64,000 nt of DNA. Origin: a virus (Duplodnaviria; Caudoviricetes). Every line of letters starts with the position of its first letter. The first letter of the stretch is position 1. The notes beneath the pieces were generated by a model that saw only the letters and a program-made list of their open reading frames with translations, did not search any database and had not been told where the DNA came from. This document shows positions 1,578 to 39,725 of the stretch, piece after piece. Both the position numbers and the translations under genes were made by a program. The stretch is from positions 1 through 64,000 of IMG/VR virus record IMGVR_UViG_3300032321_000388; one strand, 5' to 3'.

Positions 1578-4055
1578 ATGAGCAAATTCTATACCTCTGT
1601 CGTAAAATACGGCAACAAACTCCTATTCCGCTATGTGAATAATGGAAAGTCTTATAATTCAAAAATTAACTATGGTCCTGCACTCTACGTTCCGGTAAAC
1701 AAACAGACTAATCATAGATCTCTTGATGGTTTTAATCTTCATGAGATGAGATTCGAAGATCTTAATCAAGCTCAAGAATTTGCTGATGGATATAAAGAAG
1801 CACAAAATACAAAGATCTTTGGTCAAACTCAATTTGCATATCAATATATCTCCGATGAATATCCAAAGACTATTAATTGGGACAAGGATCTAATTAAGTT
1901 ATTCTCATTGGATATCGAGACTGCAACTGAACATGGATTTCCTAATATTGACGAAGCTAATGAAGAGATCCTTCTTATTACTATCAAGGACAACTTTCAT
2001 AAACAGATCGTAACATTTGGTACAAAAGATTATACATCTACTCGTGAAGATGCTAGGTATATTAAATCATCAAATGAATCAATGATGCTTAGAACATTTG
2101 TTGACTTTTGGCAACGCAACTGCCCTGATGTTATTACTGGTTGGAATATTAATGGCTTTGATATACCATACATAGTTAACCGTATTAGATTACTACTTGG
2201 TGATGATCATGTAAAGAAGTTATCTCCTTGGAATGTGGTTAATGATAAGAAGATGTATATCAACGGAAGAGATGTTAAAGGTTATTCATTTTTAGGTATA
2301 TCAACTCTGGATTATCTTGAGCTATATAAGAAGTTTACATATACAAATCATGAATCATATCGATTAGATTATATTGCAAAATTTGAATTAAACTCTAAGA
2401 AACTTGAGAATCCATATGAGACATTTAAAGAATTCTATACTAATGATTGGGACAAATTTGTCAAGTATAATATACATGACGTAGAACTTGTCGATCAACT
2501 AGAAGATAAGATGAAACTTATCGAGTTGATTTACACTATGGCGTATAATGCTAAGATTAACTTTGAAGATGTATTCAGTCCAGTTAGAATGTGGGATGTA
2601 ATCATATATAATTATCTCAAAGAACGCAATATTGTTATTCCTCTTAAAGAAGATAATTCCAGGTCTGAAGCATTTGAAGGAGCTTATGTTAAAGATCCTC
2701 TTGTAGGTCAACATAAGTGGGTTGCTTCATTTGACTTAAATTCTTTATATCCACATTTGATTATGCAGTACAACATGAGTCCTGAAACTCTAACTGATAC
2801 TAGATTAGATGTTAATGTTGAAAAACTTCTTAACAAAGAAGATATTAATGTGCCAGTTGGTTTAGCTCTTACAGCAAATGGTTGGTGTTATAGTAAAGAA
2901 AATAAAGGTTTCTTACCAGCTTTAATGGAAGAAATGTATAACAATCGATCTAAGTTTAAAAAGATGATGTTAAAAGCAGAACAAGAGTATGAGAAGACAA
3001 AAGATCCTCAACTAGTTAAAGAGATATCTAAGTTAAAAAATCTTCAGATGGCTATGAAGATCGCGTTGAATTCAGCTTATGGAGCAGTTGGTAATAGATA
3101 TTTCAGATATTATGATCTACGTATTGCTGAAGGTATTACAACGTCCGGTCAACTATCGATACGATGGATGGCAAATAAACTTAATGATTTTTTAAATAAA
3201 ACGTTGAAAACAAAAGGTGAAGATTACGTGATAGCTATAGACACTGACTCGATCTATCTCACTTTAGAGAACCTTGTTGAGTCTACTTGTGAAGGTAAGA
3301 CTACTGAGCAAAAGATTGCTTATATGGATAAAATCTGTGAACAAGCATTCCAACCATTTATTGATGGCGGATACCAAGAACTTGCAGAGTATATGAATGC
3401 TTATGGTCAAAAGATGCAAATGAAACGAGAAGTACTTGCCGATAAAGGTATTTGGGTAGCTAAGAAGCGATATGTATTAAACGTACATAATTCCGAAGGA
3501 GTACAATATGCAAAACCTAAGATTAAAGTTATGGGTCTTGAAATGGTCAAATCATCGACACCTGCAGTCGTCCGTGAGAAACTCAAAGAGGCATTGGAGG
3601 TTATCCTCCATGAAGATGAAGCGGCAGTTCAGACATTTGTCAAAACCTTTAAAAAGAAATTCAGCAAGCTCAGTATCGAGGACATCTCTTTTCCTAGATC
3701 GATTTCCGATATAGAAAAATATTCAGGTACTCCAATATATAAGAAGGGTACTCCAATGCATGTTCGCGGAGCTTTATTGTTTAATCATTATGTAAAACAA
3801 AAAGGTCTAGCTAAAAAGTATCAACCAATTGGGAATGGAGATAAGATTAAATTTGTTTATGTCAGATCTAATAATCCATTTAATGAGAATGTGATAGCAT
3901 TCAATTCTGTGTTACCAAAAGAATTTGGTTTACATCAATATATAGACTATGACTTACAATTTGAAAAAGTATTCCTAGATGCTATGCAAATTGTTATTCA
4001 ACCGTTAGGATGGCATGCTGAAGAGGTTTCTTCTCTTGAGTCCTTTTTTGCTTAG
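1578..4055 (+). CDS. 43: family B DNA polymerase (gp43)
   Basis: DIET exonuclease motif, SFDLNSLYP, KxxxNSxYG, DTDS, and C-terminal clamp-binding SLESFF. Confidence 0.98.
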   Translation: MSKFYTSVVKYGNKLLFRYVNNGKSYNSKINYGPALYVPVNKQTNHRSLDGFNLHEMRFEDLNQAQEFADGYKEAQNTKIFGQTQFAYQYISDEYPKTINWDKDLIKLFSLDIETATEHGFPNIDEANEEILLITIKDNFHKQIVTFGTKDYTSTREDARYIKSSNESMMLRTFVDFWQRNCPDVITGWNINGFDIPYIVNRIRLLLGDDHVKKLSPWNVVNDKKMYINGRDVKGYSFLGISTLDYLELYKKFTYTNHESYRLDYIAKFELNSKKLENPYETFKEFYTNDWDKFVKYNIHDVELVDQLEDKMKLIELIYTMAYNAKINFEDVFSPVRMWDVIIYNYLKERNIVIPLKEDNSRSEAFEGAYVKDPLVGQHKWVASFDLNSLYPHLIMQYNMSPETLTDTRLDVNVEKLLNKEDINVPVGLALTANGWCYSKENKGFLPALMEEMYNNRSKFKKMMLKAEQEYEKTKDPQLVKEISKLKNLQMAMKIALNSAYGAVGNRYFRYYDLRIAEGITTSGQLSIRWMANKLNDFLNKTLKTKGEDYVIAIDTDSIYLTLENLVESTCEGKTTEQKIAYMDKICEQAFQPFIDGGYQELAEYMNAYGQKMQMKREVLADKGIWVAKKRYVLNVHNSEGVQYAKPKIKVMGLEMVKSSTPAVVREKLKEALEVILHEDEAAVQTFVKTFKKKFSKLSIEDISFPRSISDIEKYSGTPIYKKGTPMHVRGALLFNHYVKQKGLAKKYQPIGNGDKIKFVYVRSNNPFNENVIAFNSVLPKEFGLHQYIDYDLQFEKVFLDAMQIVIQPLGWHAEEVSSLESFFA

Positions 4056-5194: not shown

Positions 5195-5542
5195 ATGGCA
5201 GAGCAAAAAGAATCAATAAAAGTTCTACAAGAATGTGCAGAACTTCAACTTAAAAAGTCTAACGACTATCAAAATCCAAACTCAAGAATTAAACAGGCAG
5301 ACTACTATCCTCGTGGAGTAGCAACTATTCTTGATACAATCTATGGTAAGGTACTTCGTGCCTATTCCGTCATGGAAGCCATGGAAAACGATCCAGACTA
5401 TAATCCAAATTTTGAATCTATCGAAGATTCGTTTAAAGATATGATTAACTACGCATCCTTTGCAGTTGCCTATACAAGAGGTAAAATTGAAGGTCAAAAA
5501 CCAGATCGTGACTTTGTTAATAAACCTAAAAAGGTAATATAA
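5195..5542 (+). CDS. DUF1599/Nmad1-like nucleotide-modification-associated all-alpha protein
   Basis: KKxNDY...K..R...ESIEDSFKDMINYA pattern; adjacent to the dCMP hydroxymethylase. Confidence 0.65.
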   Translation: MAEQKESIKVLQECAELQLKKSNDYQNPNSRIKQADYYPRGVATILDTIYGKVLRAYSVMEAMENDPDYNPNFESIEDSFKDMINYASFAVAYTRGKIEGQKPDRDFVNKPKKVI

Positions 5543-6231
5543 TGAGTACCGTATATGGTGTAAGTAATATTAGAAACATCTTTAAAGAAAAATTAAAGAT
5601 GGAAGAATTTGTTTATGATAAGACTGGAGTTAAAACAGTCGAGATCATGAATGCTGCATTCTTTGCAAATCAACCAGCAATCTTTGGTACAGTCAATGAA
5701 GACTATGTTAAAAGAGAATTAGATTGGTATAAATCTATGTCTCTTAATGTAAATGATATTCCTGGTGGTCCTCCAGAAATCTGGAAGATGGTTGCATCTA
5801 CTTCTGGCCGCATTAATTCAAACTATGGTTGGTGTATATATTCTAAAGAGAATGGTTCACAGTTCATAAAAGTTGTAGATGAACTAGCCCGTAGTCCTGA
5901 TTCTCGTCGTGCTGCAATGATCTATACAAGACCAACCATGCATGATGATTATAATACTGATGGTATGTCTGACTTCATGTGTACTAACACAGTCCAATAT
6001 TTAATCAGAGATGGAAAGCTACATGCAATGGTCTACATGAGATCAAATGATGCAGTTTTTGGTTACAAGAATGATTATGCGTGGCAAAAACATGTATTAC
6101 TTGAAGTATGGGAATACTTAAGAAAAAACTATAAACATTTAGTAGATCTTAATATAGGTGATATCTATTGGAATGTAGCATCTCTTCACGTTTATGAAAG
6201 GCATTTTAAGTTTATCGATGGCAGCGATTAA
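5542..6231 (+). CDS. 42: dCMP hydroxymethylase (gp42)
   Basis: Near-identical blocks to T4 gp42: DKTGVKT, RELDWYKS, INSNYGW, DSRR, GMSDFMCTNTVQYLIRD, MRSND.FG.NDYAWQK (Asp at the dCMP-specificity position), SLHVY.RHF. Confidence 0.93.
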   Translation: MSTVYGVSNIRNIFKEKLKMEEFVYDKTGVKTVEIMNAAFFANQPAIFGTVNEDYVKRELDWYKSMSLNVNDIPGGPPEIWKMVASTSGRINSNYGWCIYSKENGSQFIKVVDELARSPDSRRAAMIYTRPTMHDDYNTDGMSDFMCTNTVQYLIRDGKLHAMVYMRSNDAVFGYKNDYAWQKHVLLEVWEYLRKNYKHLVDLNIGDIYWNVASLHVYERHFKFIDGSD

Positions 6232-21390: not shown

Positions 21391-22410
21391 ATGTTATACA
21401 TCGATGCAAAATATGTAGGTCAGATTTCGTACAAGTTACGTAACTTTAAGAAAAAAAATGACTATTATTGGAACTTCAGTTGCCCTATCTGTGGTGACTC
21501 AAAGAAAAACATATTAAAAGCTCGTGGTTATGTATTTAAACATGACCAAAGACTAGTATATAAATGCCATAATTGTGGCTTTAGTTCAAACATTGGAAAT
21601 CTGATCAAGCATCTAGATCCTATACTATATAATGAATATGTTCTGGAGAGGTATAAAGAGAACTCATCCAAACATAATGATCATGTAAAACTAGAAGATA
21701 CTTCTATACATATCAATCCAGAACCTATTCTTTATGATTCTATATTGGATAATCTACAAAGGATTGACACACTCGATCTAGAACATCCAGCAAAACAATA
21801 TGTAGTTAATCGTAAGATTCCATCAGATAAATGGGATCTACTTTACTTTGTGTCTAAGTTTAAGACATGGTCTAATAGTATTAAGTATCAGTTTACAAAT
21901 ACAGAAAATGATACTCCACGCCTTGTTATACCGTTCTTTAACGAGGATGGTAAATGTTTTATGTATCAAGGTAGAGCTTTTGGTAAAGAGCAACCTAAGT
22001 ATATTACAATTAGACTAGATGAAAAAGAAGAAAAGATTTTTGGTGTAGATCGACTCGACTATTCAAAATGTATCTACGTAGTCGAAGGTCCTATTGATTC
22101 TATATTTGTACCAAATTCTATTGCAATTGGTGGAGCAGGATTTGATATCCCATTTACACAAGGTATCAAGACTAATGCAACATTAATTATGGATAACGAA
22201 CCAAGATCTAAAGAGATATGTAAGTTTATCGAGAAGCTTATTAATGAAGATTATTCTGTTTGTCTATGGCCAGATACTGTACAAGAAAAAGATGTTAATG
22301 AAATGATCATGGCTGGTAAGTCAATAAATCAAATTATGGAAACCATAAATACCAATACATTCCAAGGTATGGAAGCAAAACTTAAATTTACTCAATGGAG
22401 AAAATGCTAA
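21391..22410 (+). CDS. 61: DNA primase (gp61)
   Basis: CPICGDS...CHNC zinc finger, VEGPIDS TOPRIM, DNEPR, KDVNEM. Confidence 0.96.
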   Translation: MLYIDAKYVGQISYKLRNFKKKNDYYWNFSCPICGDSKKNILKARGYVFKHDQRLVYKCHNCGFSSNIGNLIKHLDPILYNEYVLERYKENSSKHNDHVKLEDTSIHINPEPILYDSILDNLQRIDTLDLEHPAKQYVVNRKIPSDKWDLLYFVSKFKTWSNSIKYQFTNTENDTPRLVIPFFNEDGKCFMYQGRAFGKEQPKYITIRLDEKEEKIFGVDRLDYSKCIYVVEGPIDSIFVPNSIAIGGAGFDIPFTQGIKTNATLIMDNEPRSKEICKFIEKLINEDYSVCLWPDTVQEKDVNEMIMAGKSINQIMETINTNTFQGMEAKLKFTQWRKC

Positions 22411-22901
22411 TGGATTATAAGATTATTGATAACGCATTACCTGAAGAAGAGTTTTATAAAATAAAAAGTTTAATATTTAATCAAATATTTCCTTGGTATT
22501 ATAACGACTATGTTGCTCATGAATATGATAATAGTTCAACTGGATATTTTATTCATGATTTTTATAATTTTGATAAAAATCCAATGGTTGGAAGTAATTT
22601 TACATCAATTTTACCAATTCTTGCTTTAATACAGCCTAGAAGTTTAATGAGGGTACGAGCTAACCTATATTTACGAACTTCTGAAATAGAATATCATGAC
22701 AAACATGTAGATAAAAATTATGACCATAATGGAGCAATACTTTATCTTAATACTAATAATGGATGCACCGTACTTGAAGATGGAACAAAAATTGAATCAT
22801 TAGAAAATAGAATACTGTTATTTAATCCCGGCAAACTTCATTCATCTACTTCGTGCAATGATCAATCGTATAGATCAAATATTATTATTAACTACTTTTA
22901 A
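22410..22901 (+). CDS. 2OG-Fe(II) oxygenase
   Basis: H.D, AILYLNTNNG.T, NR.LLF, H.S, R..I.INYF. Confidence 0.8.
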   Translation: MDYKIIDNALPEEEFYKIKSLIFNQIFPWYYNDYVAHEYDNSSTGYFIHDFYNFDKNPMVGSNFTSILPILALIQPRSLMRVRANLYLRTSEIEYHDKHVDKNYDHNGAILYLNTNNGCTVLEDGTKIESLENRILLFNPGKLHSSTSCNDQSYRSNIIINYF

Positions 22902-22904
22902 ATT

Positions 22905-23762
22905 ATGAAAATATTAATTACAGGAGTTACTGGATATATTGGATCTACTTTAGCAAAGATCTTATTTGAACGTGGTCATCATATCGTAGGTCTTGATATT
23001 CGATGGGATCAAAATGATGTAATAAAATATTGTCATAGGATATTAGTTAAAGACGTAACTCGTCATATTAATGATGAAGACTATGATATAATCGTCCATC
23101 TTGCTGGTTTAATCCAAGTAGAAGAAAGTGTTAGATTCCCATCTAAGTATTATGGTACTAATTTAGGTGGAACACTAAATATGTTAAGGCAACAAGGTAA
23201 TCCACACTTTATCTTTGCATCTACAGCAGGCGCTTTTGATCCAGCAAATCCATACGCAAGATCAAAGATTGCAGCTGAAGATATCATTAAAGAAAAATCA
23301 AATAACTATACTATATTTAGGTTCTTTAATGTTGCAGGATCCGATGGAGAGAATCGACAAGTTGGAAGATCCTCTCATCTAATTAGAATTGCTGCTGAAG
23401 TTGCAGCAGGTAAAAGAAAGGAAATGCAAATTTATGGAAACGATTATGATACTCCTGATGGTACTTGTGTTCGCGATTATATTCATGTGGTTGACCTTGC
23501 TACGGCTATCGCTGATACGATTGACCATGGAGCCTTTAACACGCCGTATGAATGTATTGGATCAGGAAAAGGATACTCAGTCAAAGAAGTTATTTCAGCG
23601 ATGGAAAGTATTACTGGACCGCTTAATGTAAAGATTGGCGAAAGGCGTGCTGGAGATCCTGCAAAATTATCTATTGATAATCAATTTAAGCTTTTAAAAC
23701 CTCAATATAGTTTATATGATATGTGTCAGACAGCTTATTATGCGGAGTTATCAAGAAAATGA
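22905..23762 (+). CDS. galE: GalE-like NDP-sugar epimerase (extended SDR)
   Basis: ITGVTGYIG, YARSK, RFFNVAG, GNDYDTPDGTCVRDYIHVVDLA, RRAGDPA. Confidence 0.88.
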   Translation: MKILITGVTGYIGSTLAKILFERGHHIVGLDIRWDQNDVIKYCHRILVKDVTRHINDEDYDIIVHLAGLIQVEESVRFPSKYYGTNLGGTLNMLRQQGNPHFIFASTAGAFDPANPYARSKIAAEDIIKEKSNNYTIFRFFNVAGSDGENRQVGRSSHLIRIAAEVAAGKRKEMQIYGNDYDTPDGTCVRDYIHVVDLATAIADTIDHGAFNTPYECIGSGKGYSVKEVISAMESITGPLNVKIGERRAGDPAKLSIDNQFKLLKPQYSLYDMCQTAYYAELSRK

Positions 23763-24793
23763 ACGCAATAGATCTAGTTGGTGGTAAGTTAACTAATTCA
23801 GAATATTCTCATAAAGCGGGTTGGGCTTATATGAGAGCATGTCAGTTGCAGCAAGCTACTGGAAAAGAATTTAAAGTATTACATAATGGAGAATCCTGGG
23901 ATGACTATGATACAGTATATCTATATCATGGTATGGAATTCCAAGGTTCATTGAATCTATTTGGAGGCGCAACTGAAGAATCTGCCAAGTACTTTGAAAG
24001 ACTAGCAACAACTAACGCTGGTTTAATCTCGCTTGATATACCAATGCCAGATTATGGAGAACTCTGTAAAGGTAGATTATCTGCATGTGATGACTATTGG
24101 AGAAATGTAGATTGGAATGCTGTATCAGCCAAATGTAAACAAATTCCAGATACAAGGAATCCATTAATTACAGACAAGTTAGTTATTGGAGACAGTCATG
24201 CATTCTCTGTATATCAGTCAAGATATAATGTTATTCGCAAGGATGCTAGAACTCTTCGTGGTGTATTAAAGAAAACAATTAAAAAAGAAATGATAGATCA
24301 TGGTATTGACCCGCGCGATATAAATACCATTACCACTTATTACGGTAACATTGATATTAGACATCATTTAATGAGAGAGACTAATCCTACTGGAGAAATT
24401 GATCTGTTACTTGCTGAATATGAGAAACAACTTAAAGAACTTGGTATTAGGAATGTTGAAGTAGTAAGTCCTCTTCCTATTGAAGATGAATCTCGTAGAT
24501 TGCCAAAGACTGGATATTTTAAAAATACTCCGTTCTATGGTAGTCAAATAGAAAGAGCTGAACTAGCTAATTATTTTAGTCATCAATTAGCTAGAATTTG
24601 TGAAAGAAATGGTTGGAATAATTTTACATGGCCTAATGAATGGTATACAATAGTACCTTTAGAGTACATGAAAACTTATATGGAAAGACCTAAGTCGGTT
24701 CACTTAGCTCCAAAATTTCATCGTTGGAATTATTGGAAGAACGAACCAAATGTAATAGAAGTACAATCATCATTAAACTCATTTTTTGAATAA
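23759..24793 (+). CDS. hypothetical protein: beta-glucosyltransferase-like N-domain plus SGNH-like C-domain
   Basis: DYD...SLNLFGG...LDIPMP resembles T4 BGT DYD...SINFFGG...TDIRLP; C-terminal GDSH, GNID and SVHL resemble SGNH blocks. Confidence 0.45.
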   Translation: MNAIDLVGGKLTNSEYSHKAGWAYMRACQLQQATGKEFKVLHNGESWDDYDTVYLYHGMEFQGSLNLFGGATEESAKYFERLATTNAGLISLDIPMPDYGELCKGRLSACDDYWRNVDWNAVSAKCKQIPDTRNPLITDKLVIGDSHAFSVYQSRYNVIRKDARTLRGVLKKTIKKEMIDHGIDPRDINTITTYYGNIDIRHHLMRETNPTGEIDLLLAEYEKQLKELGIRNVEVVSPLPIEDESRRLPKTGYFKNTPFYGSQIERAELANYFSHQLARICERNGWNNFTWPNEWYTIVPLEYMKTYMERPKSVHLAPKFHRWNYWKNEPNVIEVQSSLNSFFE

Positions 24794-24857: not shown

Positions 24858-26132
24858 ATGTCTAAAATTAAAGTAGCAATTATTGGCGTAGGCAACTGTG
24901 CCAAATCTCTCGTTGAAGGTATTCAGTACTATATTGAAAATCCAGACGACAAAGTAGGTCTAATGTATTCAGACATCGGTGGATATACTGTAAATGATAT
25001 TGAATTTGTTTGCGGTTTTGATGTGGATATTCGTAAAGTTAATCACCCATTAAAGGATGCTTTAAGAGCATTACCAAACTGCGCAATGGATCATGTGTTT
25101 GATATTACTGAAGCATGTGTATCTAAGGATGCAATGGTTTATTCAGGTCCGCTACTAGATGGCATAGCTCCACACATGTTGGACTACCCAGAAGAAGTAT
25201 CATTCAGGATCGGTGCTATTCCAGCTGAACCATTTGATCGTGTAGTCGATCTATTAAAATATCATAAGGTAGATGTTATCATTAATTATTTACCAGTTGG
25301 TTCAGAAGAAGCAACTAAGTTTTATGTAGATGCAGCGATCAAAGCAAAATGCCATTTCATTAACTGTATTCCTACATTAATCGATTACGAAGTTGCTCAA
25401 GAAGTAGAACAGCGATTTATTGATAATGGTTTAACAATCGTTGGTTCTGATATGAGATCAGGTTGGGGTGCTTCACGTTTATCTGAAGTATTACAGGGAG
25501 CAATGTTAGATTCTGGTTTAATGGTTACACAACATATTCAAATGAACATGGCTGCAGGTACAACTCAAGGTCAAGAAAATACCCGCACTGGTAGAACAGC
25601 AAATACTGACTTCTTGAATATGGCTAAGGAATATCGTTTAGAATCTAAACACATCTCTAAAGAGAACGTACTTAAAGGACAAAACATTGTTCGTGATGAA
25701 TCTATTGCTGGCATGACTCTTTATGCAGGTCCAAGTTTAACAGTGTTACAGAAACCAGGTGGTACATATGTTGGTTCAGATAATAAGATTGCCAATCTTG
25801 ATATAGTTGCATATGGTTTTGGTGGAGCACGTTATGAATTAACAGCACGTTTATCCGTACAAGATTCTCCAAACTCAGGTTCAGTTGTGGTATCAGCAAT
25901 TCGATTCTGTAAAGTTGCTTCTGAAATGGGTATTGTAGGTTATTTAAGAGGTGCTTCAGCATGGACTCAAAAATCTCCTCCATTACAAATGAAGACAGAA
26001 GATGCAAAATATGAATGTGATGCTTTAGCTCGTCGACGTTTTACTGAGTTGACTGAATTACAACAATCAAATAAGAATCCAAAAGCTAAAAAATTACCAT
26101 ACACATTTAATAAAGCAGTACTGGACTATTAA
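24858..26132 (+). CDS. ino1: myo-inositol-1-phosphate synthase (Ino1)
   Basis: KVAIIGVGNCAKSLVEG, INYLPVGSEEA, FINCIP, NTDFLNM, L.VQDSPNS; AAGGAG SD. Confidence 0.9.
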   Translation: MSKIKVAIIGVGNCAKSLVEGIQYYIENPDDKVGLMYSDIGGYTVNDIEFVCGFDVDIRKVNHPLKDALRALPNCAMDHVFDITEACVSKDAMVYSGPLLDGIAPHMLDYPEEVSFRIGAIPAEPFDRVVDLLKYHKVDVIINYLPVGSEEATKFYVDAAIKAKCHFINCIPTLIDYEVAQEVEQRFIDNGLTIVGSDMRSGWGASRLSEVLQGAMLDSGLMVTQHIQMNMAAGTTQGQENTRTGRTANTDFLNMAKEYRLESKHISKENVLKGQNIVRDESIAGMTLYAGPSLTVLQKPGGTYVGSDNKIANLDIVAYGFGGARYELTARLSVQDSPNSGSVVVSAIRFCKVASEMGIVGYLRGASAWTQKSPPLQMKTEDAKYECDALARRRFTELTELQQSNKNPKAKKLPYTFNKAVLDY

Positions 26133-26506
26133 TGAATAGTTTTGATATTGACGGTGTTATATACATTCGTAAGGGCCTGATCGGAGTTAGACCTGGTCCC
26201 GATGATGTTATTATTACTGGTAGATCTATTGATGAAGAACCTGAAACTAAAGAAATGCTTGAGTCTGCAGGTATTTTTAATACAGTATTTTATAATCCTA
26301 CAAACTTTGATAATAAATCTAGAGCAGGTTCAGGAGTTCATAAGGCAATGATTCTTAATGCTCTTAAAGAAACTGGAAAGGATATTCAAATTCATTTTGA
26401 AGATGATCCAATTCAGATTGCTGAAATTAAAAAACATGCTCCTTGGGTTAACATTGTACATCTAGATCATGACTTGACCTATAAGGAAAATATGAGACAT
26501 GTATGA
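26132..26506 (+). CDS. minimal HAD-family phosphatase
   Basis: FDIDGV, ITGRS, HK, HFEDD. Confidence 0.8.
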   Translation: MNSFDIDGVIYIRKGLIGVRPGPDDVIITGRSIDEEPETKEMLESAGIFNTVFYNPTNFDNKSRAGSGVHKAMILNALKETGKDIQIHFEDDPIQIAEIKKHAPWVNIVHLDHDLTYKENMRHV

Positions 26507-27566
26507 GAAGTATCTCAACATCGAGAAATTTAAAGACTTTGAGCATTTTCTAGTAAAGGTTAATGAAAGAACTGAATGGCAATTTGGTCTTCGTGACAAG
26601 TATGAAAATGATGATTCAGTAGATCCAGCATTAAATGCTGACGTTGAGTATTTTGGTTTCAATATTCTGCAAGATGATCGAATGAGATATATCATTGAGA
26701 ATATAGTAACTGTTCCTACTCTGTCTATGCCTAATAAAATAGGTAATACAATTATATCTCACTTCTATGGAGCTCGAGGTATTCATGGATTGGTCACTGG
26801 TATATCAGATGTTAAGCAAGCCCATGTTGATTTTGAAAGAATCGGCAAAGGAGATGATGATTACCTGAATGAAATAAAAAGATATATAGATATAGGTAGG
26901 CAACAAAAGCAGAAGTTCTATGGTACAACTGAGTTGCATACGTCTCTCCAGACAGCAGCTAGAAACTATTGTAGAATTAAGTATAATGATGCAAATAGAA
27001 AAGCTACTCTGGCGGATATTATTGAATGGATATCTAGCTGGACTATCGATGGTACTATAGATAATATTATAGAGAATGCAAGTTCTCTTAAAGCAATGTT
27101 TGATATTCTTACTTCCAAACCTGGAATTGGAGAATATTATGGGTATCACTGTGCTACTTCAAACTCAGTAAACCCATATTTACCTTTCCATCATGATGAA
27201 AGCTTTTGTGCTCCTGGTCCTGGTGCTAGGGAATCATTAGAAAATATATTTGATAAATGGACTGGTAAGAAGTTTCCTTATGCAGATATGGTTGTATGGT
27301 TAAGAGATAACCAAGAACGACTTTTTGAAAGAATAAATATTCATCCACACTTTCATAATTTTGAAGTTGGTAATGTTAAAGTATTTGAACATAATCAAAA
27401 CAATATGAAGGTATATGGAACAGAGGTAGGTTTATGTCAATATGGAGTTTACTGTTGGCTTAAAGCAAATCCTCATTTGATATCAAAACGCAAGATTGCC
27501 AGAGTAAACACGATTCAAGAAGGTGGTGTTTGTGCTGGTGCAACATTAAATGATTTTATAGGATAA
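26499..27566 (+). CDS. aGPT-pyrophosphorylase / amino-acid:DNA-transferase-like HhH-fold DNA base-modifying enzyme
   Basis: HhH-like PGIGEYYGY, downstream PGPGA..SL, and a C-terminal E..LCQY motif. Confidence 0.6.
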   Translation: MYEKYLNIEKFKDFEHFLVKVNERTEWQFGLRDKYENDDSVDPALNADVEYFGFNILQDDRMRYIIENIVTVPTLSMPNKIGNTIISHFYGARGIHGLVTGISDVKQAHVDFERIGKGDDDYLNEIKRYIDIGRQQKQKFYGTTELHTSLQTAARNYCRIKYNDANRKATLADIIEWISSWTIDGTIDNIIENASSLKAMFDILTSKPGIGEYYGYHCATSNSVNPYLPFHHDESFCAPGPGARESLENIFDKWTGKKFPYADMVVWLRDNQERLFERINIHPHFHNFEVGNVKVFEHNQNNMKVYGTEVGLCQYGVYCWLKANPHLISKRKIARVNTIQEGGVCAGATLNDFIG

Positions 27567-27567
27567 T

Positions 27568-27987
27568 ATGAAAATAGGTTTTACAGCTTCTACATTTGAT
27601 TTATTACATGCTGGTCATATAAGTATGTTAAGAGAAGCAAAAGAACAATGTGATTATTTAATATGCGGTTTACAAGTCGATCCATCAGTCGATCGAGCAA
27701 ATAAAAATTCACCGATTCAAAGTATAGTAGAAAGACAAGTACAATTATCAGCGGTAAAATACGTTGATGAAGTTATTGTCTATAGAACTGAGCAAGATCT
27801 GGAAGATATTCTCCAGATGTTTCACATAGATATTAGAGTACTTGGTGATGAGTATAGAGATCAAGACTTTACTGGTAAAGATATATGTAAGAAGCGCGGT
27901 ATTCAATTGCATTTTAATAAGAGAGACCATCGCTTCTCAACAACAGCATTAAGATTACAAGTAGTAGAAAAAACTAAAAACAAATGA
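27568..27987 (+). CDS. TagD-like cytidylyltransferase
   Basis: FDLLHAGH (HxGH), VKYVDEV, GDEY, RDHRFSTT. Confidence 0.9.
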   Translation: MKIGFTASTFDLLHAGHISMLREAKEQCDYLICGLQVDPSVDRANKNSPIQSIVERQVQLSAVKYVDEVIVYRTEQDLEDILQMFHIDIRVLGDEYRDQDFTGKDICKKRGIQLHFNKRDHRFSTTALRLQVVEKTKNK

Positions 27988-28511
27988 TAAAAAAACACGA
28001 AATACAAATATTTGATAATTTGCTTTCATTTAAAGAACGAGCATTTCTATATAAAGCAGGGTTAAATTCTCGGTATACACTAGGACCAGCTGGATCTCCT
28101 ATTTTAGAAAATATGGCAATATATGCTTTTTCTTCAATGTTTAATGAAGATGAATTAAAAACACATCCTATATTTAATATAATAAGAAATAATTCTAAAT
28201 TAACAGAAATTATTAATCAATATAATATAGATAAAGCATGGTATAATTTATCCGCTCAATCAGAAATCAATTTTATTCATACACACTATCAAGATAAAAT
28301 TTTATTATATTATGTTAACTTAGAATGGCATAATGATTGGTTAGGTGAAACAGTTTTTTATAAAGAGAATGGAACTGATATAGACACATTTATGCAATAT
28401 ACGCCGGGAAGATTTATATTATTTGATGGAGATCATCCACATGTAGTTAGACCTCATAAAGGGGTTCAATATCGTTTCTCATTTGCAATAGCATTAAATA
28501 AAAAGGATTAA
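27984..28511 (+). CDS. 2OG-Fe(II) oxygenase
   Basis: LYYVNLEW...W.GET.F, PGR.ILFDG..PH, RFSFA. Confidence 0.75.
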   Translation: MIKKHEIQIFDNLLSFKERAFLYKAGLNSRYTLGPAGSPILENMAIYAFSSMFNEDELKTHPIFNIIRNNSKLTEIINQYNIDKAWYNLSAQSEINFIHTHYQDKILLYYVNLEWHNDWLGETVFYKENGTDIDTFMQYTPGRFILFDGDHPHVVRPHKGVQYRFSFAIALNKKD

Positions 28512-28513
28512 TA

Positions 28514-30298
28514 ATGACCGAAGAAGTTCATGGTATTAAGGTTGACTATTCACGAGATTCATTGTTTGATGAATTAGGAATGCTTAGATTAAAAGAGTCA
28601 TATATGGCGGATGGAGAAAAATCTCCGCAAGAAAGATTTGCATTTGTATCAAGTAAATTTTCATCAGATAAATTCCATGCACAGCGATTATATGATTATT
28701 CATCAAAGCATTGGTTATCGTATGCTACTCCTATACTATCATTTGGTAGATCTAAACGGGGTTTACCTATATCATGCTTTTTAAATTTTATTGAAGATAC
28801 CGCGGAGGGTCTAGTTGAAAACTTATCTGAAACTAATTGGCTATCTATGCTTGGGGGTGGTGTTGGTATTGGCTTTGGAATCAGGTCTGCTGATGATAAG
28901 TCTACTGGCGTTATGCCTCATCTTAAAATGTATGATGCTAGCTCTCTTGCTTATCGTCAAGGGCGTACTCGTCGCGGCAGTTATGCTGCTTACTTGGATA
29001 TTTCACACCCTGACATTTTAATGTTTCTTGAGATGCGTAAACCTACAGGCGACCAAAACATGCGTTGCTTGAACTTACACCATGGAGTTAATATTCCTGA
29101 TGCATTCATGGAAATTATAGAAAAATGTATGTTAGATCCAAATGCTAATGATGATTGGGAATTAAGAGATCCTCATTCAGGCGAACTAAGAGAAACTGTT
29201 TCAGCAAAAGAATTGTGGCAAAAACTATTAGAACTTCGTATGACTACAGGAGAACCGTATCTGCATTTCATTGATGAATCTAATAGAAAGATGCCGCAAT
29301 GGTTAAAGGACAAAGGTTTAAAAATACATCAGTCAAACTTATGTTCAGAGATTATTTTACCTACTAACGAAAAGAGAACAGCAGTTTGTTGTTTATCAAG
29401 TTTAAATTTGGAGTATTATGATGATTGGAAAACTGATAGCTTATTTCTTAAGGATGTTGCAGAGATGCTGGACAATGTGCTGCAATATTTTATTGACACT
29501 GCTCCTTCTGCTATTAAGCGGGCTCGTTATTCTGCTTCTCGCGAACGGAGTATTGGTATTGGTGCTCTTGGCTGGCATGCTTTATTGCAGCGAAAAAATA
29601 CTCCCTGGGAAAGTGCAATGGCAACAGGACTTAATAAACAAATCTTCGCACACATACGAACAACTCTTAATAAAGCTAATAAGCAATTGGGTAAAGAACG
29701 TGGTGAAGCTCCTGACGCCGAAGGTACTGGAAACAGGTTTTCTCATCTTATGGCTATTGCTCCCAATGCTAGCTCTTCTATCCTTATGGGAAATACTTCC
29801 CCATCAATAGAACCTTTTAGAGCTAATGCTTATCGACAAGATACTTTATCTGGTTCTCATTTACATAAGAACCAATATTTAGATAAGATTATTAAGGAAA
29901 AAGCTAATGATAAGTATGATGAGATTTGGAGTTCAATTATTGCGAATGATGGTTCAGTTCAACATTTAGATATACTAGATGAATGGCAAAAAGATGTGTT
30001 TAAGACTTCTATGGAAATTGACCAACGATGGGTTGTCCAACACGTAGCAGACCGCCAAGAGTTTATTGATCAAGCACAGTCATTAAATGTATTTTTTAGA
30101 CCTGACAGTCATATTAAATATGTACATGCAGTTCATTTCCAAGCTTGGAAACAAAAGCTTAAGACTATGTACTACTGTCGTTCAGATAAGATCGCTAAGG
30201 CAGATAAAGTATCTAAACGAATTGAAAGAGAAGTTATTGCTGAGATCGATTTGAAGGCAATGACTGAAGGTGAAACTTGTTTGGCTTGTGAGGGATAA
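28514..30298 (+). CDS. nrdA: ribonucleotide reductase class I alpha subunit (no ATP cone)
   Basis: PISCF, SNLCSEI, VCCLSS, APNASSS, MYYCR and C-terminal CLACEG. Confidence 0.95.
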   Translation: MTEEVHGIKVDYSRDSLFDELGMLRLKESYMADGEKSPQERFAFVSSKFSSDKFHAQRLYDYSSKHWLSYATPILSFGRSKRGLPISCFLNFIEDTAEGLVENLSETNWLSMLGGGVGIGFGIRSADDKSTGVMPHLKMYDASSLAYRQGRTRRGSYAAYLDISHPDILMFLEMRKPTGDQNMRCLNLHHGVNIPDAFMEIIEKCMLDPNANDDWELRDPHSGELRETVSAKELWQKLLELRMTTGEPYLHFIDESNRKMPQWLKDKGLKIHQSNLCSEIILPTNEKRTAVCCLSSLNLEYYDDWKTDSLFLKDVAEMLDNVLQYFIDTAPSAIKRARYSASRERSIGIGALGWHALLQRKNTPWESAMATGLNKQIFAHIRTTLNKANKQLGKERGEAPDAEGTGNRFSHLMAIAPNASSSILMGNTSPSIEPFRANAYRQDTLSGSHLHKNQYLDKIIKEKANDKYDEIWSSIIANDGSVQHLDILDEWQKDVFKTSMEIDQRWVVQHVADRQEFIDQAQSLNVFFRPDSHIKYVHAVHFQAWKQKLKTMYYCRSDKIAKADKVSKRIEREVIAEIDLKAMTEGETCLACEG

Positions 30299-30921
30299 TG
30301 TTTATAAATCGTACAAAAAGATATGTATATTTAAGAGTACCAAAAACAGGATCTACATCTATACATAACTATTTGATAGATAATAAAAAAGATGATGATG
30401 TTTCTTATTCATTCATGAGAGAATATAAATTTGATAATCATAATAGTTCTTTTAAAAATGCTCATCCTAACTTGCAAGACGCTATTAACAGTAACTTATT
30501 AAAAATAGAAGATTTGTCAAATTATAAAATTTATGGAATAATAAGAAATCCAATAGATAGATTTATTAGTATGGTTTACCATTTCTATAAAGGAAATAAA
30601 AAAAAACATCAAAATGATGTAGTTAGAGATGCTATTAATGATTATAAACTAGGTATTTATCCATATCACGCACAAAAAGATTGGTTAATTTATAACAATA
30701 ACCCAATTAATAATATCTTTTTATATGAAAATATTAATAAAATGCTTACTAGTATTTTAGGAACTGATGTAAATATTAAATATAATCATCGATCTAAATA
30801 TAGAACAAATCATAATTATAATGATTTAGAATTAGAATTACAAAATACAATTAAAGAAATATATTACGAAGATTGGCAAATATATAATATGTATAAACAA
30901 AAAGAAGTTAATTTAAAATAA
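30298..30921 (+). CDS. sulfotransferase-like protein
   Basis: PAPS-binding PKTGSTS and RNPIDRFIS motifs; Y.EDW tail. Confidence 0.7.
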   Translation: MFINRTKRYVYLRVPKTGSTSIHNYLIDNKKDDDVSYSFMREYKFDNHNSSFKNAHPNLQDAINSNLLKIEDLSNYKIYGIIRNPIDRFISMVYHFYKGNKKKHQNDVVRDAINDYKLGIYPYHAQKDWLIYNNNPINNIFLYENINKMLTSILGTDVNIKYNHRSKYRTNHNYNDLELELQNTIKEIYYEDWQIYNMYKQKEVNLK

Positions 30922-30930
30922 AGGAGTAAT

Positions 30931-31689
30931 ATGAAGAAGTTATTAGCAATAGTTCTATTAAGTTTTACTAGTTTAGTATTAGCAAATACAATTGATGATA
31001 AGTGTAAACAACATGTTATTTGGGGAGCTCCTCAAGTTAAAGTTGAAGGTAATAATCAATATCTTTGTAAAACAGGTTATGCCGCAAATTACAACTATGA
31101 GACTAAAGTATCAAAATTTGTAGTTGAAAAGATTGAAGGAGCTAAATTAATAAAATCAGCTACTCGTAAAGATGATTTTAGAGAAGATCAAGAAGTTCCA
31201 GCGCAATATAGATCTACGTTGGCAGATTATACTGGGTCTGGTTATGATCGTGGTCATATGGCACCAGCAGCAGACTTTATGTTTGATGAGAAACAAATGA
31301 GTGAATCATTCTTTCTTACTAACATGATGCCACAAGTACCTGGTAATAATCGTGGCATTTGGAAATATCTTGAAGAAATGACAAGATATTGGGCTCAAAC
31401 ACACGGTACAGTTTATGTTATTACTGGAGTTATTACTTCTCCACCATATACAGCAATTGGTAATGGAGTAATTGTTCCATCGCATATCTATAAGATTGTA
31501 ATTGATCCTAAAACTGGTAAACAAACTGCTTATCTATTTCCAAATGAGAAGTTAGATCCAAAGACAATAGATAACTATGCAGTATCAGTTGCAACTATTG
31601 AACAAAAAACAGGTATAAACTTTTCACCAGCATTACCAGCAAATCTTAAAGTTAACGAAACAACAATAATTAATACGAAAGCATTTTAA
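30931..31689 (+). CDS. secreted DNA/RNA non-specific endonuclease (NucA/Serratia type)
   Basis: Signal peptide; YDRGHMAP, NMMPQ, NRGIWKYLE. Confidence 0.9.
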   Translation: MKKLLAIVLLSFTSLVLANTIDDKCKQHVIWGAPQVKVEGNNQYLCKTGYAANYNYETKVSKFVVEKIEGAKLIKSATRKDDFREDQEVPAQYRSTLADYTGSGYDRGHMAPAADFMFDEKQMSESFFLTNMMPQVPGNNRGIWKYLEEMTRYWAQTHGTVYVITGVITSPPYTAIGNGVIVPSHIYKIVIDPKTGKQTAYLFPNEKLDPKTIDNYAVSVATIEQKTGINFSPALPANLKVNETTIINTKAF

Positions 31690-32669: not shown

Positions 32670-32815
32670 TGGCAACTAAATATTTCCACTGCGAGAATTG
32701 CGAATCCACAGGTAAAGTTACAGTAAAAACAAATGACATCACAATTGAAGATATCGTATTTTGCCCTATATGCGGCGCAGATATCTTTGAAGAAGATCAA
32801 GATGATCACGAATGA
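32669..32815 (+). CDS. small zinc-ribbon protein (48 aa, missing from the ORF track)
   Basis: MATKYFHCENC...FCPICG; GGAGGAG SD; coupled on both sides. Confidence 0.7.
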   Translation: MATKYFHCENCESTGKVTVKTNDITIEDIVFCPICGADIFEEDQDDHE

Positions 32816-33237
32816 CATGGTTATACAATAATGTGCCCATTGAGGATATTGACATTAAATATGTAGGTTTTGTATATCTCATTACTAATCTTGTTACTGG
32901 TAAAAAATATATTGGTAAGAAATTATCTAAATTTTCAAAGACAAGTACTAAGACTGTTAAACTTAAAGATGGTACTAAGAAGAAAAAGAAGATAAGAAGT
33001 AAAGTAGATTCTGACTGGAAGACATATTGGTCTTCGTCTAAAGATGTTCAGGCTGATGTTAAGACATTAGGAGAAGATAAGTTTAAACGAGAAATCCTAA
33101 TATTCTGTCTCACTAAAGGAACAGCAACATATTATGAAGCCAAGTATCAGTTTCAACATGAAGTGCTAGAGAAACCTGATGAATGGTATAATGGTCAAAT
33201 ACAATGTAGAATTCATAGGAGTCATATTAAGAAGTGA
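32812..33237 (+). CDS. GIY-YIG endonuclease
   Basis: GFVYLITN...KYIGKK and DWKTYWSS. Confidence 0.85.
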   Translation: MTWLYNNVPIEDIDIKYVGFVYLITNLVTGKKYIGKKLSKFSKTSTKTVKLKDGTKKKKKIRSKVDSDWKTYWSSSKDVQADVKTLGEDKFKREILIFCLTKGTATYYEAKYQFQHEVLEKPDEWYNGQIQCRIHRSHIKK

Positions 33238-37378: not shown

Positions 37379-37799
37379 TATTTTATTGACAGGTTTTGCT
37401 GTTCAAGCACAACCACTTCCAGATTATACATTCAAGAGTCCATCATTTAATGGTAATGGATACTCTTCGCATATCCTTACAATCGAGAACCAAGAGCATT
37501 CTCGTAAAGAGCAAGTAAAGAAAGATATTCAAGCTGCTCTTGATAAAGTAAAGAATGATAAAAATAATACTAACATATCTAAGTTCCTTAATAACTTAGA
37601 ATCTCGTATATATGCACAGATTTCTCAGAACGTGGCGACAGCTATGTTTGCAGATGGTGGCAGTACTTCAGGCACATTAAACTTTGAAGGCAACATCATC
37701 AATTGGAGTAGAAGCTCTACTGAGATTACACTTAATGTGACTGACTACGTAGGTAGTAATACATCAATATCAATACCATTAGGATCATTTCAATTCTAA
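37347..37799 (+). CDS. csgF: curli assembly protein CsgF-like
   Basis: Signal peptide, then YTFKSPSFNG...ENQ; upstream of csgG. Confidence 0.75.
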   Translation: MRLTTRILSLSILLTGFAVQAQPLPDYTFKSPSFNGNGYSSHILTIENQEHSRKEQVKKDIQAALDKVKNDKNNTNISKFLNNLESRIYAQISQNVATAMFADGGSTSGTLNFEGNIINWSRSSTEITLNVTDYVGSNTSISIPLGSFQF

Positions 37800-38620
37800 T
37801 GAAACATTTATTAATAATTATATCGCTTCTAGTCTTGACTGGTTGCGCTGGATCTACTGTAATTAGAGATGTAGATAAACCTCTTATCTCTAAAAATTTG
37901 ATGCAAAAAGAATTCGACATGCTTCCTGGCCCTCATGGCAAGAAGGTATCGGTTGCTGTATATAGTTTTGCTGATAAGACTGGACAGAGAAAGCCCAGTG
38001 CTAACATAGCACAACTATCGACAGCAGTTACTCAAGGGGCTGACGCGTTCCTCATCAAGGCATTACAAGATGTGGGTAAAGGTCAGTGGTTTGATGTTGT
38101 CGAACGAGTTGGCTTGGATAGTCTAACTAAAGAGCGTCAGCTGATTCGCCAAATGCGCGAAGCTTACGAGGGTGACAAAGCCAAGCCTTTATCTCCTATG
38201 ATGTTTGCTGGTATCATATTAGAAGGCGGTATCGTAGGTTATGATTCATCAACAAGATCTGGTGGATCTGCGATGAGGATGTTGGGTATTGGCCCACAGA
38301 CACAATATTCTGAGGATATAGTAACTATCAGCTTACGAGCTGTTAGCGTGAATACAGGAAAAGTTTTAGTATCAGTTACTGTGCAGAAGACAGTTTATTC
38401 TGCAGCTGATAGCTTAGCGATATTGAAGTTCGTTAAGAATGGAACACAGGCATTTGAATTCGAGACGGGTTTAACTATCAACGAGCCAGGTACATTAGCT
38501 GTTAAAGCTGCTGTTGAGGCTGCAGTTGTTGAATTGATTAAAGAAGGAGAGAAGAAAGGTGTATGGGATTTCTCATATCCTTATGTTGCTCCAGAAAATA
38601 AACAAGAGGAGACAAAATAG
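37799..38620 (+). CDS. csgG: curli secretion channel CsgG-like lipoprotein
   Basis: LTGC lipobox, VAVYSF.DKTGQRKP, STAVTQGA, WFDVVERVGL..LTKERQLIR. Confidence 0.9.
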   Translation: MKHLLIIISLLVLTGCAGSTVIRDVDKPLISKNLMQKEFDMLPGPHGKKVSVAVYSFADKTGQRKPSANIAQLSTAVTQGADAFLIKALQDVGKGQWFDVVERVGLDSLTKERQLIRQMREAYEGDKAKPLSPMMFAGIILEGGIVGYDSSTRSGGSAMRMLGIGPQTQYSEDIVTISLRAVSVNTGKVLVSVTVQKTVYSAADSLAILKFVKNGTQAFEFETGLTINEPGTLAVKAAVEAAVVELIKEGEKKGVWDFSYPYVAPENKQEETK

Positions 38621-39403
38621 ATGAACAACTATTTAAAACTAATGGTTGCGATGATATTTTCGGCGTCTGCATTCGCAGCAGACAATAGTATTTACATTGA
38701 CCAATCAGGTGATAATTCTACAATTGACATTACACAGACTGGTGCAGGCAACGTAGTGCGTGGTATACAAGGTGTTGGTTCAAGTAATACAACGCCAGCT
38801 AAGATCTATGGTAATAATAATGCTATAGACATTAGGCAAATTGGTTCTACTAATACATTAAGTCTTGGTGTTAATGCATCTACCGCAACTGGTAGAGCTT
38901 ATGGTATTGACTTAACATACTACGTGACTGGTAATTCTGGTACTGCTGTTATTAACAGTAATAATGCTGGAACAGGTACTTCTGGATCTAACTTTATTGA
39001 CGTAAGACAAACAGGTAACTCTGCTAATCTTAACTTAAACATCTTAGGTTCTAAGAATGACTTTACTGCTGTAACATCTGGTGGTTCTGGTAACAGTATC
39101 ATATCAACTATCAATGCTGACAGTACAGTTAATAACATATCAATGACGGGTGGCGGTAGCAATACACTTACTCAAACTATTACAAGTAATAAAGCAACAA
39201 ATAATATTACTGTTCTTGGTGCAAGTAATGGTATTGTATTAACACAGTCTGGTACAGCTGGAACTAATGGTCACGCATTTACACTTGACTTAACCGGTTC
39301 AAGCAATACATTAAACGTAACACAATCAGGTACTATCGATACCACAGTGAACTTACTTAGTATTGGTAGTGGTAATGCATGGAATATAACAACCGGAAAC
39401 TAA
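38621..39403 (+). CDS. curlin-like secreted repeat protein
   Basis: Signal peptide; G/N/S/T-rich repeats (IxQxGxxN). Confidence 0.7.
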   Translation: MNNYLKLMVAMIFSASAFAADNSIYIDQSGDNSTIDITQTGAGNVVRGIQGVGSSNTTPAKIYGNNNAIDIRQIGSTNTLSLGVNASTATGRAYGIDLTYYVTGNSGTAVINSNNAGTGTSGSNFIDVRQTGNSANLNLNILGSKNDFTAVTSGGSGNSIISTINADSTVNNISMTGGGSNTLTQTITSNKATNNITVLGASNGIVLTQSGTAGTNGHAFTLDLTGSSNTLNVTQSGTIDTTVNLLSIGSGNAWNITTGN

Positions 39404-39404
39404 A

Positions 39405-39725
39405 ATGAAAACTATATTATTTTTGTTAGTTATAGTAATTAGTTTTTTAGCAGTATCAAAAGAAGTTAAAAAGTTACATTATAATTATAATGATAAAGTT
39501 ACAATTTGGATAAGCAACGAAGAGTGTCCATTACCGCAATTTATTAAACAATTTCCATGGAAAGTAGAAGCAATTCGTTCTGATGGAGATATCATGATAG
39601 GTTGTTTTAATGGAGAAAATAATACAGTAACTATTCAATGGAATGGCGGAGATAAAAGCATGTTTCCAGCAGATTATTTTTTATATAATACATCCAGTGA
39701 AGCACTTCCTAAAAATAATCTATAA
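39405..39725 (+). CDS. secreted hypothetical protein
   Basis: Signal peptide; two Cys. Confidence 0.55.
   Translation: MKTILFLLVIVISFLAVSKEVKKLHYNYNDKVTIWISNEECPLPQFIKQFPWKVEAIRSDGDIMIGCFNGENNTVTIQWNGGDKSMFPADYFLYNTSSEALPKNNL

Follow-up and report, generated by a model that had tools for sequence, protein, structure and literature searches.

We analyzed a 64,000-nucleotide stretch of DNA, referred to here as the window, which represents positions 1 to 64,000 of IMG/VR virus record IMGVR_UViG_3300032321_000388, and focused on a gene at 23759–24793 whose product joins a lobe resembling part of T4 beta-glucosyltransferase (BGT) to a lobe resembling SGNH-type enzymes. The 118.6-kb source record, which is 74% complete, is from a T4-like phage and includes genes for GroES, primase, ribonucleotide reductase and gp43. 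A first-pass annotation of the DNA had delimited the gene correctly: the open reading frame (ORF) is real, its start codon at 23759 shares bases with the stop of the preceding GalE-like epimerase gene (ATGA), and the start position is common to its relatives in the alignment. All of the motifs quoted in that annotation were found in the translation, specifically WDDYDTVYLY (residues 47–56), SLNLFGG (64–70), LISLDIPMP (89–97), GDSH (144–147), YYGNIDIRHH (194–203) and SVHL (313–316). The features of the gene and its product, referred to here as the BGT-N/SGNH protein, are as follows:

23759..24793, + strand: gene of the BGT-N/SGNH protein (P0001; 344 residues from translation of the ORF), with a BGT-like N lobe, an SGNH-like C lobe and a C-terminal tail
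23759..24154, + strand: N-terminal domain (residues 1–132), homologous to the acceptor (DNA/5-hydroxymethylcytosine) lobe of T4 BGT
24035..24037, + strand: Asp93 in SLDIPMP, aligned by hhalign with the BGT catalytic base Asp100 (TDIRLP)
24155..24763, + strand: C-terminal domain (residues 133–335), SGNH/GDSL fold
24188..24199, + strand: GDSH (residues 144–147), block I with the putative nucleophile Ser146, invariant in 89 of 89 relatives
24344..24367, + strand: GNIDIRHH (residues 196–203), a non-canonical block III followed in the alignment by a nearly invariant R-H-H
24683..24703, + strand: Glu309 to His315 (ERPKSVH), with a block V-like His and a displaced acidic residue, both Glu309 and His315 being invariant in 89 of 89 relatives
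24767..24790, + strand: C-terminal tail SSLNSFFE, a peptide of the sliding-clamp-binding type by comparison with the DNA polymerase and the helical partner protein

Lobes and tail of the BGT-N/SGNH protein

The architecture of the BGT-N/SGNH protein was not found in Pfam (nothing at E <= 0.1), NCBIfam (no match), the PDB sequences (only chance-level matches, E > 0.8, to the whole protein and both family profiles) or the literature searched, which held no description of the family, and the family is undescribed. The protein corresponds to PHROG family phrog_13881 (E 3.5e-80), whose function is unknown, and aligns in addition with positions 1–335 of phrog_17781, a profile of 795 positions of which positions 437–558 match a neighbouring gene at 26499–27566. 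There are 753 relatives in a database clustered at 90% identity, representing 666 clusters at 50% identity, and almost all of them cover both domains. Only 20 matches were found in 185,579 species genomes, and since all 20 are in metagenome-assembled bins the family is essentially viral. Conservation was assessed in an alignment of 89 relatives, 43 of them close and 46 distant, with identities down to 29%. The AlphaFold2 model of the protein, which had 43 relatives in its alignment, has a predicted local distance difference test score (pLDDT) of 91.5 and a predicted template modelling score (pTM) of 0.88.

The acceptor lobe of BGT is the lobe that holds the flipped-out 5-hydroxymethylcytosine (hmC), and the resemblance of the N-terminal half to it, as claimed in the first-pass annotation, was borne out by profile comparison, by controls and by the fold. 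A BGT profile was built from genes in five phage records (T4, Merlin, Muldoon, an Acinetobacter phage and an Enterococcus phage) and was matched by the N-domain profile in hhalign with a probability of 92.6% (P 4.6e-7, score 52.7; residues 1–94 versus BGT 1–99). The full-length alignment carries this match on to SLDIPMP versus TDIRLP, and therefore Asp93 falls on BGT Asp100. In the shuffle control the real BGT profile scored 49.0 compared to 14.0 +/- 3.0 (maximum 26.7) for 200 column-shuffled profiles, and the reversed BGT profile scored 13.8. The score being far above those of the shuffled controls, the N lobe is a true homologue of the BGT acceptor lobe; in addition, BGT was the top match to the N lobe among 48,161 chains. 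The T4 strings quoted in the annotation were also accurate, as the T4 sequence has NDYDRLIVV..INFFGG..YLFTDIRLP and a 74-residue BGT probe was a 100% match to T4 b-gt. Asp93 is kept in 42 of the 43 close relatives, and S17, H18, N66 and G70 are nearly invariant.

No resemblance to the UDP-glucose lobe of BGT was found in the C-terminal half, the profile alignment with BGT ending near residue 100, and the C-terminal Rossmann UDP-glucose-binding lobe that characterizes GT-B enzymes was not present. The annotation had named two outcomes that would overturn its proposal, an N-terminal half unlike the BGT N-domain and an entire protein that models as an ordinary GT-B or an unrelated fold. Neither was observed: the N-terminal half resembles that domain in profile and fold, and an ordinary GT-B was ruled out since residues 133–335 model as an SGNH fold.

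The model of residues 133–335 has the three-layer alpha/beta/alpha arrangement of that fold, and its best structural matches are nearly all SGNH-fold proteins. In the model, GDSH follows the first strand of the domain (140–144) and GNID the third, which is the order of canonical blocks I and III. All of the strictly invariant residues of the family are in the SGNH lobe (G144-D145-S146-H147, G196, D199, R246, R266, E309 and H315), where T165, R201, H202, H203 and R206 are nearly invariant, and the sequences thus clearly indicate a constraint of catalytic type on this domain. Block III reads G196-(N/S)197-I198-D199, with invariant G196 and D199 and with Asn at position 197 in 74 of the 89 relatives. 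Of the SGNH blocks assigned in the first-pass annotation, block I stands as GDSH, Ser146 and His315 are invariant, and blocks III and V have atypical forms; the chemistry of the lobe may differ from that of a textbook esterase. None of the curated sequence models (PF00657, PF13472 and similar) is matched by the protein, and a language-model search of the ESM Atlas led from the C lobe to Lipase_GDSL clusters. The same resource, queried with residues 133–344, has large clusters of stand-alone viral proteins of ~200–220 residues that resemble the SGNH lobe with scores of 0.94–0.95, one of them with 1557 members and no Pfam match; phages may also encode an SGNH-like lobe of this kind on its own.

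The C-terminal tail was compared with those of proteins from the window, T4 and Aeromonas phage 44RR2.8t (44RR), and the comparison involves the polymerase gene of the window:

1578..4055, + strand: DNA polymerase gp43 homologue with a tail like that of the BGT-N/SGNH protein, matching T4 and 44RR gp43 in its C-terminal third at E about 1e-41

In T4 and RB69, gp43 docks on the gp45 sliding clamp by means of its tail peptide. The tail SSLNSFFE is similar to those of the window polymerase (SSLESFFA) and the helical partner protein described below (ATLNDFIG), and among the 39 ORFs listed for the first 36.7 kb these three proteins are the only ones with clamp-type ends. The tail of T4 gp43 is ASLDFLFG and that of a 44RR fusion protein is SLDGLFAI, and tails of the SL..F type recur among T4-like relatives. 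In 44RR2.8t (L094, 18559-22278), the gp42 gene adjoins a 432-residue open frame which matches the C-terminal part of gp43 and ends NNLFDMFDI.

The hmC context proposed in the first-pass annotation is supported by a second gene of the window:

5542..6231, + strand: gp42-type dCMP hydroxymethylase, the source of hmC, 57% identical to T4 gp42 (E 5e-94), with the motif RSNDAVFGYKND

The cytosine-specifying Asp is kept in this gp42 homologue (RSND..FGYKND), and the DNA of the phage should therefore carry hmC. Neither a BGT-like gene nor any glucosyltransferase turned up in the 118.6-kb record, which covers 74% of the genome. The gp42 homologue of 44RR2.8t is 59% identical to that of the window. Ten larger related contigs, which are 23–88% complete, were searched for gp42; a distant thymidylate-synthase homologue of 285–290 residues was found in three and none in seven, and hmC synthesis is thus not claimed for every carrier of the family.

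Helical partners, fusions and neighbouring genes

The genes surrounding that of the BGT-N/SGNH protein in the window are as follows:

22905..23762, + strand: GalE-like NAD-dependent epimerase, accessory (PF01370, E 2.5e-31; TIGR01179, 213 bits)
24858..26132, + strand: homologue of myo-inositol-1-phosphate synthase (MIPS) (PF01658, 34.5 bits)
26132..26506, + strand: small HAD/PNK-phosphatase-like protein of 124 residues (phrog_415, E 5.7e-8)
26499..27566, + strand: type-A helical partner of 355 residues, HMUDK_hel/AADT-like and without a kinase domain (PF18723, 57.4 bits)
27568..27987, + strand: cytidylyl/adenylyltransferase (RfaE domain II/TagD-like), accessory (PF01467, E 4.8e-14; TIGR02199, 85.8 bits)

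We compared 81 loci carrying the family, 80 from IMG/VR and one from the 44RR2.8t record. The type-A helical partner, which has an invariant cysteine (Cys313), was detected by blastp beside the family in 39 of them; 47 have the MIPS homologue and 42–43 the small HAD protein. The neighbour proteins in the other loci are 25–50% identical to the window copies, and the gene order has therefore been conserved over a long divergence. Thirty of the loci of this MIPS/HAD/HMUDK_hel type have an additional FkbM-family methyltransferase. Its gene sits between the HAD and helical genes (for example L035:10704-11405), and in P0123 it forms residues 1–250 of a protein in which it is fused with the helical protein and the BGT-N/SGNH family. 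A cyclitol would be a suitable substrate, as O-methylation of a cyclohexyl hydroxyl is the reaction of FkbM enzymes.

A second type of cluster, in 29 of the 81 loci, combines the family with a type-B helical partner of 405 residues whose neighbours in the ESM Atlas carry HMUDK_hel and ADDT, and 26 of these loci have a fold-II pyridoxal phosphate (PLP) enzyme. The type-B partner and several conserved neighbours had no match in Pfam, PHROG or NCBIfam. Fusions of the family were found with both partners, with type A in P0123 and P0149 and with type B in P0139, P0147, P0174, P0179, P0184, P0249 and P0225, and every segment of the fusion proteins matches at E <= 1e-13. The helical HMUDK_hel/AADT-like protein is an obligate partner of the BGT-N/SGNH family, and fusions of the two have arisen independently many times. 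According to its Pfam entry, the helical domain of PF18723 also occurs in 5-HMUDK, where it is joined to a P-loop kinase. Walker A motifs are absent from all of the conserved neighbour clusters and all of the fusions, and no AAA_33 domain was found in the 118.6-kb record, although at 74% completeness a distant kinase gene is possible.

A 97-residue DUF6378 protein is encoded directly upstream of the family in 57 of the 81 loci (for example L068:3333-3626), though not in the window, and may be a small all-alpha nucleoside triphosphate (NTP) pyrophosphatase acting on the pool of modified nucleotides. Genes for DNA polymerase and ribonucleotide reductase also often lie nearby, and the one representative scanned of a 155-residue neighbour cluster matches dUTPase_2.

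These surroundings bear on whether the BGT-N/SGNH protein is a DNA enzyme at all. It is conceivable that it is an esterase- or lipase-like auxiliary whose substrate is a small metabolite or a glycan or lipid of the host envelope, with an N lobe that is simply a generic Rossmann-like domain. We regard this as very improbable because the profile match to BGT is specific and scores well clear of the shuffled controls, the protein has a tail of the clamp-binding type, and its fusion partner is a domain which is otherwise known from kinases of DNA bases. In addition, its neighbourhood has gp42, all-alpha NTP-pyrophosphatase-like, ribonucleotide reductase and DNA polymerase genes, and no export signal is evident in its N-terminal sequence.

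The accessory genes bear in turn on the function of the SGNH lobe. The epimerase accompanies the family in only 4 of the 81 loci and the cytidylyltransferase in only 3, and their membership of the core, in a CDP-inositol route, was rejected on that basis. Another possibility is that the protein works like a GT-B enzyme with an exchanged donor lobe, the SGNH lobe binding a phosphorylated donor (inositol phosphate, CDP-inositol or another nucleotide-activated group) and Asp93 activating the hmC hydroxyl for a direct phospho- or glycosyl-type transfer. The retention of the BGT Asp and the non-canonical blocks III and V are in keeping with such a donor lobe, the unusually basic set of conserved residues (H147, R201, H202, H203, R246 and R266) would suit phosphate, the MIPS homologue is the commonest neighbour, and a cytidylyltransferase gene is in the window. 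However, the rarity of that gene among the loci, the absence of any sugar or cyclitol genes from the type-B clusters, and the absolute invariance of the GDSH Ser146 and His315, as for a catalytic dyad, make this quite unlikely. We also know of no precedent for an SGNH fold serving as a nucleotide-donor lobe.

A tblastn search identified the family in 43 phage records, 38 of which are Aeromonas T4-like phages, including 44RR2.8t, 31, 25 and Aes508; the other five are three Tenacibaculum phages and Stenotrophomonas phage IME13 (two records). The Aeromonas phages 44RR2.8t, 31 and 25 carry a fused form of the enzyme. In ORF233c of 44RR2.8t (795 residues), the first 330 residues represent the BGT-N/SGNH family and the remainder matches the helical protein of the window. 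Directly upstream of this fusion gene (L001 6375-7898) is that of a Na+/solute symporter of the SGLT/YidK type (TIGR00813, 272 bits), which occupies the place of MIPS and HAD in the aquatic phages and may bring in the group destined for the DNA.

Several other genes of the window were recorded. Two paralogous 2-oxoglutarate-Fe(II)-oxygenase-like proteins (22395-22901 and 27984-28511) flank the modification cluster; both match phrog_274, and the second also matches PF13640. Their genes are not conserved beside the family in other loci. A 207-residue sulfotransferase-family protein (30298-30921; PF03567, E 2.5e-10) is encoded between the genes for the large and small ribonucleotide reductase subunits and, given its position in a nucleotide-metabolism block, could be a further tailoring enzyme. 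It is followed by a non-specific DNA/RNA endonuclease (30931-31689; PF01223), and a SegE-type GIY-YIG homing endonuclease gene (32812-33237) lies just after the gene for the small reductase subunit. The region 37799-40818 encodes a CsgG homologue (PF03783, E 2.5e-48), a curlin-repeat protein and a FecR-domain protein.

Candidate role in cytosine hypermodification

The BGT-N/SGNH protein probably helps to build a DNA base modification. We give a probability of roughly 0.6 to the reading that, in the hypermodification of hmC, it works on DNA as a catalytically active partner of the helical protein, and that it acts on hmC or a derivative in newly replicated phage DNA as half of the two-protein core of a cytosine hypermodification pathway. 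Features relevant to its mechanism that the first-pass annotation had missed are the association and fusion with the helical partner, the clamp-type tail and the absence of a kinase. In thymidine hypermodification, a P-loop kinase first phosphorylates 5-hydroxymethyldeoxyuridine (5-hmdU) in DNA, and after the kinase step AADT enzymes swap the phosphate for an amino acid via an active-site thiolate (Lee et al. 2021, PMC8989533). We place the BGT-N/SGNH protein in the position of the kinase because of the analogy with that core and because no kinase was found.

The protein would most likely catalyze an acyl-type transfer onto the 5-hydroxymethyl group, and the first-pass annotation had likewise suggested that a Ser nucleophile may acylate hmC or its adduct. 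By analogy to thymidine hypermodification this might be an activation step, with O-acylation in place of phosphorylation by a 5-hmdU kinase, a suggestion that we favour among the possible mechanisms but consider tentative. In such a scheme, the N lobe would present the 5-CH2OH of flipped hmC to the SGNH site, where Ser146 would form an acyl-enzyme, for example from an acyl-coenzyme A (acyl-CoA) or ester, from which the acyl group would move to the hydroxymethyl oxygen of hmC. The O-acyl ester would then be the leaving group, in the role of the kinase-made phosphate, and the helical partner with its Cys313 would replace it by a nucleophile. In the phage of the window the MIPS homologue and the small HAD protein would provide a cyclitol as that nucleophile, and in the 30 related loci with the FkbM-family methyltransferase it would possibly be a methylated cyclitol. 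In the Aeromonas phages it might be a cyclitol or sugar brought in by the symporter, and in the type-B clusters an amino acid that would subsequently be remodelled by the PLP enzyme. The most specific form of this proposal is that the protein would be the first nucleobase O-acyltransferase for DNA, riding on the clamp and providing an hmC ester as leaving group for an AADT-like partner, with a cyclitol ether or amino-acid adduct as the product; we hold this to be rather doubtful.

Several observations weigh against the proposed chemistry or parts of the proposed pathway. The canonical oxyanion-hole Asn position of block III is occupied by Ile198, and block V lacks the Asp of DxxH, as the residue at His-3 is Lys312 and the invariant Glu309 is at His-6; the chemistry may therefore not be classical acyl transfer. 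The putative catalytic residues Ser146, His315 and Glu309 were assigned from motif order and secondary structure in the model. Asp93 is kept in just 30 of the 46 distant relatives. Among the neighbours conserved in the 81 loci there is no acyl-CoA ligase, carrier protein or acyltransferase partner, and the neighbourhood points to no acyl donor. Type-A and type-B helical partners had no similarity to each other in hhalign (probability 0.1%), the ESM Atlas lead being the sole reason for considering them kin. The MIPS homologue scored 223 bits against TIGR03450, far below the equivalog cut-off of 638 bits, and inositol is therefore tentative.

The identity of the accessory genes is pertinent to a further explanation, in which the helical partner or another enzyme would first attach the cyclitol or amino acid to hmC and the BGT-N/SGNH protein would act late, O-acylating or de-acylating the appended group on the DNA, which was the second option of the first-pass annotation. 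The SGNH fold and its invariant Ser and His fit that role, its structural neighbours include O-acetyltransferases and esterases acting on sugar hydroxyls (OatA, Ape1 and acetyl-xylan esterases), and the clamp tail and BGT-like lobe would suit any DNA-directed step. However, the protein is constant among clusters whose accessory genes differ (MIPS, HAD and FkbM methyltransferase versus the PLP enzyme), and in this it is unlike a tailoring enzyme, which would be expected to vary with the appended group. Since it is also repeatedly fused to the core helical protein, and since late action would leave the missing activation step unexplained, we consider this alternative unlikely.

If the O-acyltransferase proposal in its most specific form is true, an inositol-type DNA base would be widespread in aquatic T4-like phages and present in 44RR2.8t, 31 and 25. 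The latter three were identified as T4 relatives that have genes 42 and 56 and no glucosyltransferase (Petrov et al. 2010, PMC2993671), and whether unglucosylated hmC suffices for such phages was an open question at that time. No later account of a modified base in 44RR, 31 or 25 was found in the literature searched. The BGT-N/SGNH family is a concrete candidate for hmC decoration in these phages and, since all three are cultured, the question is directly testable. Uncultured aquatic phages account for nearly all of the 666 clusters, and the modification could therefore be frequent in natural settings. It would also be relevant to how phages resist restriction and CRISPR systems, and to the enzymatic toolbox for the chemistry of hmC.

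Comparison with known systems

The C lobe shares with SGNH/GDSL proteins (such as 2hsj, 7e16, OatA 5ug1/6vjp and Ape1 4k3u) its fold and a block I GDS(x) after the first strand. It differs from those enzymes in matching no sequence model, in having G-(N/S)-I-D for GxND and Glu at His-6 for the DxxH Asp, and in the additional conserved residues H147, R201, H202, H203, R246 and R266, as well as in being fused to a glycosyltransferase acceptor lobe, with DNA as its presumed substrate.

With T4 BGT (PDB 1c3j, 1qkj), the protein has in common a homologous N-terminal region of ~100–130 residues with the MK.AI start, DYD, xNxFGG and (S/T)-x-D-I-x-x-P, in which the catalytic Asp is aligned. Each is found in T4-like phages whose hmC is made by gp42. 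In the related contigs L008 and L009 the family is ~4 kb downstream of a gene-42 homologue, whereas T4 b-gt is next to gene 42 itself. However, an SGNH-fold domain replaces the whole UDP-glucose-binding C lobe of BGT, and BGT has neither a clamp-binding-type tail nor an obligate helical partner.

The RB69/DLP3 pathway to arabinosylated 5-hydroxycytosine (PMC13326640; PMC6024577) is a precedent, being that of a T4-like phage which was listed in 2010 as having genes 42 and 56 without a glucosyltransferase and in which a new hypermodification of cytosine was subsequently discovered. UDP-arabinose and arabinosyltransferases of the ordinary GT-B type are employed there, and neither an SGNH domain nor an HMUDK_hel partner is involved.

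The proposed pathway also has parallels with the thymidine core of 5-hmdU DNA kinase and aGPT-Pplase/AADT. Both have a helical HMUDK_hel/AADT-like protein together with a second enzyme domain, either separate or fused, both follow a hydroxymethylase of the thymidylate-synthase type, and in both there are variable accessory genes, such as those for PLP enzymes, which set the final group. In contrast, the precursor in the thymidine pathway is 5-hydroxymethyluracil, whereas here it is hmC, as the thymidylate-synthase homologue is of the gp42 type with Asp in KND and not a dUMP hydroxymethylase. In addition, the MIPS, HAD and FkbM-methyltransferase accessory genes found here have not been reported for the known thymidine pathways, and the P-loop kinase of those pathways was not found here, with the BGT-N/SGNH protein in its position. 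Glycosyltransferases and a P-loop kinase are the known enzymes for the 5-hydroxymethyl group of DNA pyrimidines. An SGNH-type catalytic domain attached to the half of a glucosyltransferase that binds hmC would add a third solution, with an architecture that is new among DNA-modifying enzymes.

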